A DNA stretch of 64,000 nucleotides from Macrostomum lignano (lineage: Eukaryota). Shown here piece after piece: positions 20,596-21,051 of this stretch. Position 1 is the first letter of the stretch; every line of letters begins with the position of its first letter. Made by a program: the position numbers and the translations under genes. The stretch is taken from NCBI GenBank assembly GCA_002269645.1, contig NIVC01000212.1:496001-560000 (forward strand), read 5' to 3'. The notes beneath the pieces were generated by a model that worked only from the letters and a program-made list of their open reading frames with translations, made no database searches and was not told where the DNA came from.

Positions 20596-21051
20596 ATGTA
20601 GCGCTCTGGTGGTAAAAAAGATTCACATGGACTGATAGAAAAGCTTCCTCATCCAAACAAAGGCTGGACAGTTCCGGGGTACAAATATTGCGGGCCTTTG
20701 AATCCACTTGAAATACAGTTAGATAAAAACAATAATCCAAATCCTGGGCATGAGCCTGTGAACGAGCTAGACTCTGTCTGCATGTGGCACGACGTTAAAT
20801 ATAGAGATTTTCCAGAGGAGAAGAATCGCTGGGACAAAGAAATGCTTAGGAGATTAGACAATATGGGGACTTCAAGCGGATTTCGTGAGTCGATTGCTAG
20901 GAAATTAGTCAAGGCGGTTATTTTTGTTAAGACAAAGTTGGGGTTGGGAATTGACGGCTGTTTTGAAGAAGGGGTGGGTTTTTTATTGCACGCGCCAAGT
21001 AAAGAACTAGGAAGACTGCTGAATGAGCTGGGGGTTGAGAGAGCAGAATGA
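20596..21051 (+). pseudogene. Parvovirus-VP1u-like phospholipase A2 (PLA2X)
   Basis: ATG-TAG at 20596, then in frame LIEKLPHPNKGWTVPGYKYCGPLN (Ca loop)...PVNELDSVCMWHDVKY (HDxxY catalytic)...KTKLGLG. Confidence 0.85.

Follow-up and report, generated by a model that had tools for sequence, protein, structure and literature searches.

A parvovirus-type phospholipase A2 pseudogene in a decayed Polinton/adintovirus-type element of Macrostomum lignano

The window analyzed here is a 64-kb stretch of Macrostomum lignano DNA, in which positions 20596..21051 (+) hold a pseudogene for a parvovirus-type phospholipase A2 (PLA2). As inspection of the sequence reveals, an ATG (20596-98) is followed directly by a TAG as codon 2 (20599-601), and translation gives a frame of 149 amino acids that is open from stop to stop (codons 20602-21048, terminal stop 21049-51) and matches PF08398. 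The gene sits in a decayed, left-truncated copy of ~12 kb, 10214-22163, and the earlier note's placement of PLA2 in a dsDNA element is borne out by the Polinton/adintovirus-type gene set found around it. Head-to-head with PLA2 lies an rve integrase with a stop at 20482-84 (19531..20565 (-); PF00665, E=4e-08). Beyond it are a gene for an adenovirus pX-like core protein, separate from PLA2 and frameshifted near 19400 (19121..19514 (-); PF05829, E=2.3e-07, 31 bits versus a cut-off of 25), a protein-primed DNA polymerase B (PolB) in three pieces, with a stop at 18256-58 and a frameshift near 16720 (15377..18930 (-)), and an adenain-type maturation protease whose 5' end is broken (14867..15266 (-); PF00770, E=1.3e-04, above cut-off). 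Further left are an uncharacterised gene with a hydrophobic hairpin, frameshifted near 14570 and matching unnamed clusters only (14123..14862 (+)), a coiled-coil-like ORF with no Pfam family above cut-off (13214..14032 (+)), an A32-type packaging ATPase (12360..13196 (+); PF04665, E=3.9e-05, above cut-off), a small basic ORF that has three GxG motifs and no family and may encode a core protein (11880..12266 (+)), an ORF with a Gln/Pro repeat and an internal stop at 11555-57 (10607..11863 (+)), and the first 121 codons of a double-jelly-roll major capsid protein (10214..10576 (-)), the rest of which was not found in the 64-kb window. By gene content, the element is of the Polinton/Maverick (adintovirus) type, with PolB, rve integrase, ATPase, adenain protease and double-jelly-roll capsid all present, mostly broken.

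Some smaller observations concern these genes. The pX-like gene contains four GG/GxG motifs, PolB carries an endonuclease VII-like insert (PF02945, just below cut-off), and at its 3' end PolB passes into a 20-nt repeat (15311-15430). Among named polymerases, the PolB of a Corynactis coral adintovirus comes closest, at 42% across 67% of the piece. We dropped the idea that a PLA2 is unusual beside a polymerase of this class, as the Corynactis adintovirus stands in Fig S2 panel A of PMC8502044, which we read as the Alpha set, where PLA2X is typical. An ORF of 216 aa without a Pfam family, 20649-21299 (-), was taken as an antisense shadow of the PLA2 frame and set aside.

Decay extends well beyond PLA2, with breaks in at least six further genes, the integrase, protease, pX and PolB genes and the ORFs at 10607 and 14123 among them. 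Five proteins of 388-438 aa share 78-85% identity with the capsid fragment (PF21738 in all three that were scanned), and this similarity ends at codon 121. PolB is missing ~95 residues including the DTDS motif; its anchors are spaced by 47 versus a median of 141 in relatives, and DTDS lies between them in 113 of the 116 relatives that have both anchors, of 120 returned. No penton family or fold emerged for any ORF in the general scans, and the left part of the element is missing. Frameshifts are a common error of long-read sequencing, and several letters of the window are carried by no contig in four sequencing runs of the host, as would be expected if the stop and the other breaks were assembly errors in an intact copy. 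This explanation is highly improbable, since neither the capsid truncation nor the ~95-residue loss from PolB is a base-call error, and contigs of two runs match 22139-22382 without mismatch.

The right end of the element (21828..22163) consists of four copies of an 81-83 nt repeat and a terminus ending in CTACT, and its position at 22163 is marked by that terminus, by a host repeat that begins at 22164 and by a collapse of contig depth. The junction contigs carry 25 letters on the element side versus 31 required, so the right junction is not formally bridged. Polintons have terminal inverted repeats and a typical target-site duplication of 5-8 bp, according to the description in 10.1101/2023.08.22.554363. 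Neither a left inverted repeat nor an inverted partner of the right end is present in the window. The hexamer just outside the right end (22164..22169 (+)) recurs identically 14 nt away from the capsid break, at 10194-99, and the pair may be the target-site duplication left by an insertion that has one proper end; a match of this kind within 30 nt has a chance of ~1%, and it was noticed after the fact. The target-site reading stays unproven because a paralog of the flank at 23772 does not run on into the left flank and because the left inverted repeat is lacking. In run X10 only another version of the flank is seen, a weak hint of a polymorphic insertion. Near the right end there is also an ORF of 78 aa, 21396-21632 (-); its start lies in a good context, its depth is high in each of the four runs, and it has no family.

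The call of a parvovirus-type PLA2 had been made from motifs, and an HMM match to the Parvo_coat_N/PLA2 family was named as a way to check it. The frame indeed matches PF08398 with E=1.8e-13 and 51 bits, versus a gathering cut-off of 23.9, over model positions 1-78 of 80, and it has 636 relatives at E<=0.001; the match is therefore not due to chance. AAV VP1 matches the frame weakly (best E=0.0066). Both motifs of the earlier note are confirmed: GYKYCGPLN, the calcium loop, at residues 26-34 (20677..20703 (+)), and the catalytic HDVKY at residues 63-67 (20788-20802), which together with the second Asp at residue 78 (20833-35) spans 20788..20835 (+). In the VP1u of parvovirus B19, mutating Y130, G132, H153, D154, Y157 or D175 abolishes activity, as PMC3626588 reports, and the counterparts of these residues in the window are Y29, G31, H63, D64, Y67 and D78. 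In an alignment of 71 relatives, which we selected from 157, they are conserved in 58 (plus 13 with Phe), 71, 70, 68, 69 and 70 sequences, respectively. The last Gly of the YXGXG loop is replaced by Leu in the window; the 71 relatives have Gly (24), Tyr (18), Asn (9), Leu (7) or Phe (5) there among others, and Phe also occupies this position in an AAV capsid. The frame has only three cysteines, no signal-like hydrophobic stretch within its first 40 residues, and a variable tail of 33 residues after the domain.

A structure model of the frame has a mean pLDDT of 80.7, with low values at residues 1-6 and 117-131. Foldseek returned no match for it at E<=0.001 in the PDB and viral libraries. The six best rows from the PDB are chains of rice PLA2 (E 0.034-0.21), and nearly all rows from the viral structures are parvovirus VP1 or PLA2-like proteins (best E 0.002), stand-alone PLA2-like proteins of an entomopoxvirus and a baculovirus among them. 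Of 48,161 chains in a wide structure search, rice PLA2 ranked first (Z 8.2 and rmsd 4.2 with 102 aligned), although an unrelated helical protein (Z 7.3 with 66 aligned) counts formally as a tie. The absence of a fold match had been named beforehand as a finding that would count against the PLA2 call; the secreted-PLA2 fold does appear among the top matches, with modest scores. These consistent top matches suggest, with modest strength, that the modeled frame adopts the secreted-PLA2 fold, while the sequence evidence for its identity as a PLA2 is strong. Together with the conserved residues, the family and fold matches thus support the parvovirus type, and the predicted protein keeps an intact-looking active site within a capsid-bearing integrating element.

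The next in-frame ATG after the TAG is residue 61, which lies behind the calcium loop, so the whole enzyme cannot come from the window copy. The earlier note stated that the TAG at codon 2 silences the gene. The TAG is present and production of the whole enzyme is precluded, but that this TAG is the inactivating lesion, which requires ATG 20596 to be the correct start, is quite likely rather than certain. The start at 20596 is favored by an A-rich context like that of 10 other presumed starts in the element, and by its head-to-head arrangement with the integrase ATG at 20565, with 30 bases between, a layout shared by the capsid start at 10576 and the ORF start at 10607. It is favored as well by the six codons after the TAG, which read as a basic leader with Gly-Gly (20608-20613); among random 6-codon stretches of the element 1.9% have such a motif, and of the 60 relatives with a leader 48 have GG or GxG <=7 residues upstream of the domain, versus 155 of 2702 background 7-mers. 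The closest relatives tell against this start. All seven of them (55-68% identical; from 24 candidates) start two residues ahead of the Asp at 20620. They lack a leader, as do 22 of the 82 distant relatives (of 148) that could be anchored on this Asp, the other 60 having a leader. The true start may accordingly have been lost from a position two codons ahead of the Asp at 20620, in which case the ATG-TAG at 20596 would not be the start of the gene and the lesion would be misplaced; an A-run stands before the codon at that register. Among the 40 of 166 substitutions and the 12 of 30 indels listed from the contigs of four runs, none falls at 20596-20620, which leaves the stop without a listed variant, as a misplaced lesion would have it, and equally shows no indel where a start would have been lost, and which proves nothing about codon 2 in other copies. 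With the leader-like codons, the start context and the shared layout against it, we regard a lost start as rather unlikely.

The glycines recur at the other end of the domain, where GG or GxG is found in 68 of 88 relatives (those of the 148 that were long enough) versus 10 of 234 downstream 20-mers. As the relatives share ancestry, these counts are not independent, and upstream 66 of the 148 could not be anchored. In the window, the Gly-Gly before the domain (20608..20613 (+)) and a KLGLG at its end (20935..20949 (+)) are candidate protease sites, the former by the GG|X rule of mavirus, whose protease cleaves at GG|X and at GX|G and whose virions contain the integrase and a processed predicted hydrolase, by the account in PMC6048507. 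The bounds in the relatives support the start at ATG 20596 and suggest, weakly, that PLA2 is released by the maturation protease of the element. Neither boundary fits the strict adenovirus protease rule, (MIL)XGXG as given in 10.1101/341131, since P4 is Arg or Lys, and the glycines may instead be plain linkers or helix caps. The vOTU protease of the polymerase, described in PMC11161782, is another possible cutter of the precursor.

Domain scans of 107 of the 157 relatives found PF08398 in 105, together with rve in 13 and with DUF5679, behind which PLA2 then lies, in 16; these fusion counts may be skewed where genes were called on decayed copies. At least 10 of the 13 PLA2-integrase fusions have Gly motifs between the two parts. 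PF05829 was found in none of the 107 at E<=0.001. The window PLA2 belongs to a small distinct clade, with 55-68% identity to the seven relatives and <49% to the next best. No related locus was confirmed among 37 pattern matches in viral_contigs and 370 in metagenome_contigs.

A PLA2 in such an element is no surprise. The gene was marked on Polinton maps in 2013 (PMC3671162), the catalytic residues of the "CAP" PLA2 proteins of Spodoptera frugiperda Mavericks were found to be conserved in 2018 (PMC5803895), the adintovirus protein was named PLA2X, with a C-terminal pX-like domain, in 2021 (Starrett et al., PMC8502044), and PLA2 was noted in entomopoxvirus-associated elements in 2024 (PMC11296320). 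PMC11071296 contributes nothing further on the gene. The earlier note's statement that homologs had been reported in adintoviruses holds, and the window gene is a further, dead member of a gene class known in Polintons since 2013. Like adintovirus PLA2X and the Spodoptera Maverick PLA2, as those sources depict them, it is of parvovirus type, keeps the catalytic and calcium residues, and belongs to an element with pPolB, rve integrase, adenain, ATPase and double-jelly-roll capsid. Unlike PLA2X as described, it has no pX-like domain, pX being a gene of its own on the opposite strand, and the gene and the whole copy are dead. Our Pfam scan found no PF05829 on the window PLA2 at E<=0.1, while PMC8502044 used the more sensitive HHpred, and its supplement may already depict PLA2 and pX as separate genes.

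With the VP1u PLA2 of parvoviruses (B19, AAV, densoviruses) the window protein shares the calcium-loop Tyr and Gly, HDxxY, the second Asp, the low number of cysteines and the fold. It differs in coming from a dsDNA integrating element, in the Leu at the last Gly of YXGXG and in an insertion of about ten residues after the calcium loop. In addition, it does not form the N-terminus of a jelly-roll capsid protein, as its frame ends 33 residues past the domain, and no parvovirus family was found among the 26 ORFs scanned in the window. Rice PLA2 (PDB 2wg7/2wg8), the best structural match in both PDB searches, has the same helical catalytic core and loop, but the identity is ~20%, the window protein has only three cysteines and no signal-like stretch, and the scores are weak. 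The likeness to the mavirus maturation system lies in a protease of the same class beside capsid, ATPase and integrase genes and in GG|X and GX|G at the domain borders; in what PMC6048507 reports, however, cleavage is shown for the capsid protein and suggested for the hydrolase, whereas in the window it would concern another enzyme. Judged by its residues, the window PLA2 thus resembles that of parvovirus VP1u, yet it is neither a VP1 nor strictly a PLA2X.

Parts of 19400-21700 are found in 20 of the 24 listed runs (7 studies, one organism), with shares of 0.33-0.48, and no RNA run is among the listed holders. In run X1 the summed contig depth is 83,901-188,758 over the PLA2 core versus 127-238 over the flank, and in run X10 a single integrase contig has a depth of 1029.8 versus 13.7 for the flank contig; contig depth is no copy number, but these values suggest a family of many diverged copies in the host. 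Depth drops after 20898, which fits the variable tail of the relatives. From the contigs of four runs, the integrase stop appears private to the window copy. Some contigs in two runs show 8 gap letters in the PLA2 core, and two of the three displayed PLA2 differences from other copies are synonymous, which is too few to weigh.

Taking these data together, we consider it likely that the window gene is a pseudogene of a stand-alone Polinton/adintovirus PLA2, in a decayed, left-truncated copy of a many-copy family, and that its functional parent was a protease-released minor virion core protein that breached the endosome. The parent would have carried a short basic leader, and the adenain-type protease of the element would have cut it at Gly-Gly or Gly-x-Gly on both sides of the domain. 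Ca2+ and the His-Asp pair would then hydrolyse phospholipid, and this hydrolysis would open the endosomal membrane during entry, in the manner of parvovirus VP1u; the discussion in PMC8502044 likewise proposes endosome breach for the adintovirus PLA2, by analogy with parvoviruses. The window copy itself would make nothing, its stop after the start being one of many presumably neutral lesions. In the literature searched, which was mainly open-access, we found no report of a measured activity or virion location for any Polinton PLA2.

The same gene, with the same decay, may instead have encoded an enzyme for another step, such as cell exit or passage of the nuclear envelope, delivered with the integrase. 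The 13 integrase fusions among the 107 relatives and the adjacency of both genes in the window are in keeping with this, as are the stand-alone PLA2-like proteins of an entomopoxvirus and a baculovirus and the damage that B19 VP1u does to cell membranes from outside, by the account in PMC3626588. However, parvovirus VP1u, the one relative family that has been tested, is needed for infectivity in the accounts of PMC3626588 and PMC8502044, the Gly motifs part PLA2 from the integrase in at least 10 of the 13 fusions, and some fusions may be gene-calling artefacts. We therefore hold a role in another step to be unlikely. Less likely still, the enzyme was already inactive or dispensable in a family that spread as a particle-less transposon, so that PLA2 would say nothing on infectivity. 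Under such dispensability one could understand that no listed variant marks the PLA2 stop as private to the window copy, unlike the integrase stop, and that some contigs of two runs have the 8 gap letters in the core. All catalytic residues are kept, however, and intact relatives exist for PLA2 at 55-68% and for the capsid at 78-85%.

Endosome breach by a virion protein thus remains our preferred reading for the parent, but it does not make PLA2 a proof of infectivity. The earlier note took the enzyme to argue for a real infectious virus rather than a pure transposon, which is overstated: PLA2 is weak evidence here, as an entomopoxvirus and a baculovirus also have PLA2-like proteins that stand alone, and 13 of 107 relatives are integrase-fused. 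The capsid, packaging ATPase, maturation protease and pX genes are stronger evidence for virus ancestry, with which the predicted PLA2 fits.

More broadly, Polinton PLA2 may be a protease-released cassette, fenced by Gly-Gly or Gly-x-Gly and cut from varied precursors (stand-alone, behind DUF5679 or integrase-fused), so that the enzymes for breach and integration are packaged together, and the many-copy family of this host may still make natural particles. We offer this only tentatively and think it somewhat doubtful as a whole. No description of Gly boundary motifs in Polinton PLA2 was found in the literature searched, mainly open-access. Alone, the window copy is of little weight, being one dead member of a described gene class. 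For entry by animal Polintons, the conserved Gly motifs offer concrete, checkable termini for PLA2 in natural particles, and it is reasonable to seek such particles in a host where a capsid-bearing family is present in many copies.

Elsewhere in the window, a decayed non-LTR retroelement (7000-9930; RVT_1 piece at 8183-8524) lies left of the viral copy and ends in a 14-nt tandem array at ~9570-9930. To the right, related host stretches at 23095-23700, 26159-26582 and 29150-30368 are 78-90% alike, two of them with PAN/apple-like ORFs, and represent a local gene duplication. Arrays of a 20-nt purine-rich repeat stand in opposite orientation at 27279-27714 and 32360-33013, and an intronless tetraspanin ORF lies at 37468-38238 (-) (PF00335, E=1.9e-40). 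With its tetraspanin, PAN-like ORFs and non-LTR retroelements, the sequence surrounding the element looks like that of an animal. An inverted repeat of 607 nt at 42053-44009, whose arms are 94% complementary and 743 nt apart and which has a further copy near 31679-32023, is probably a non-autonomous DNA transposon. Finally, two long ORFs lie one after the other at 56180-61892 (+), the first of 856 aa with reverse transcriptase and RNase H and the second of 800 aa without a Pfam family.
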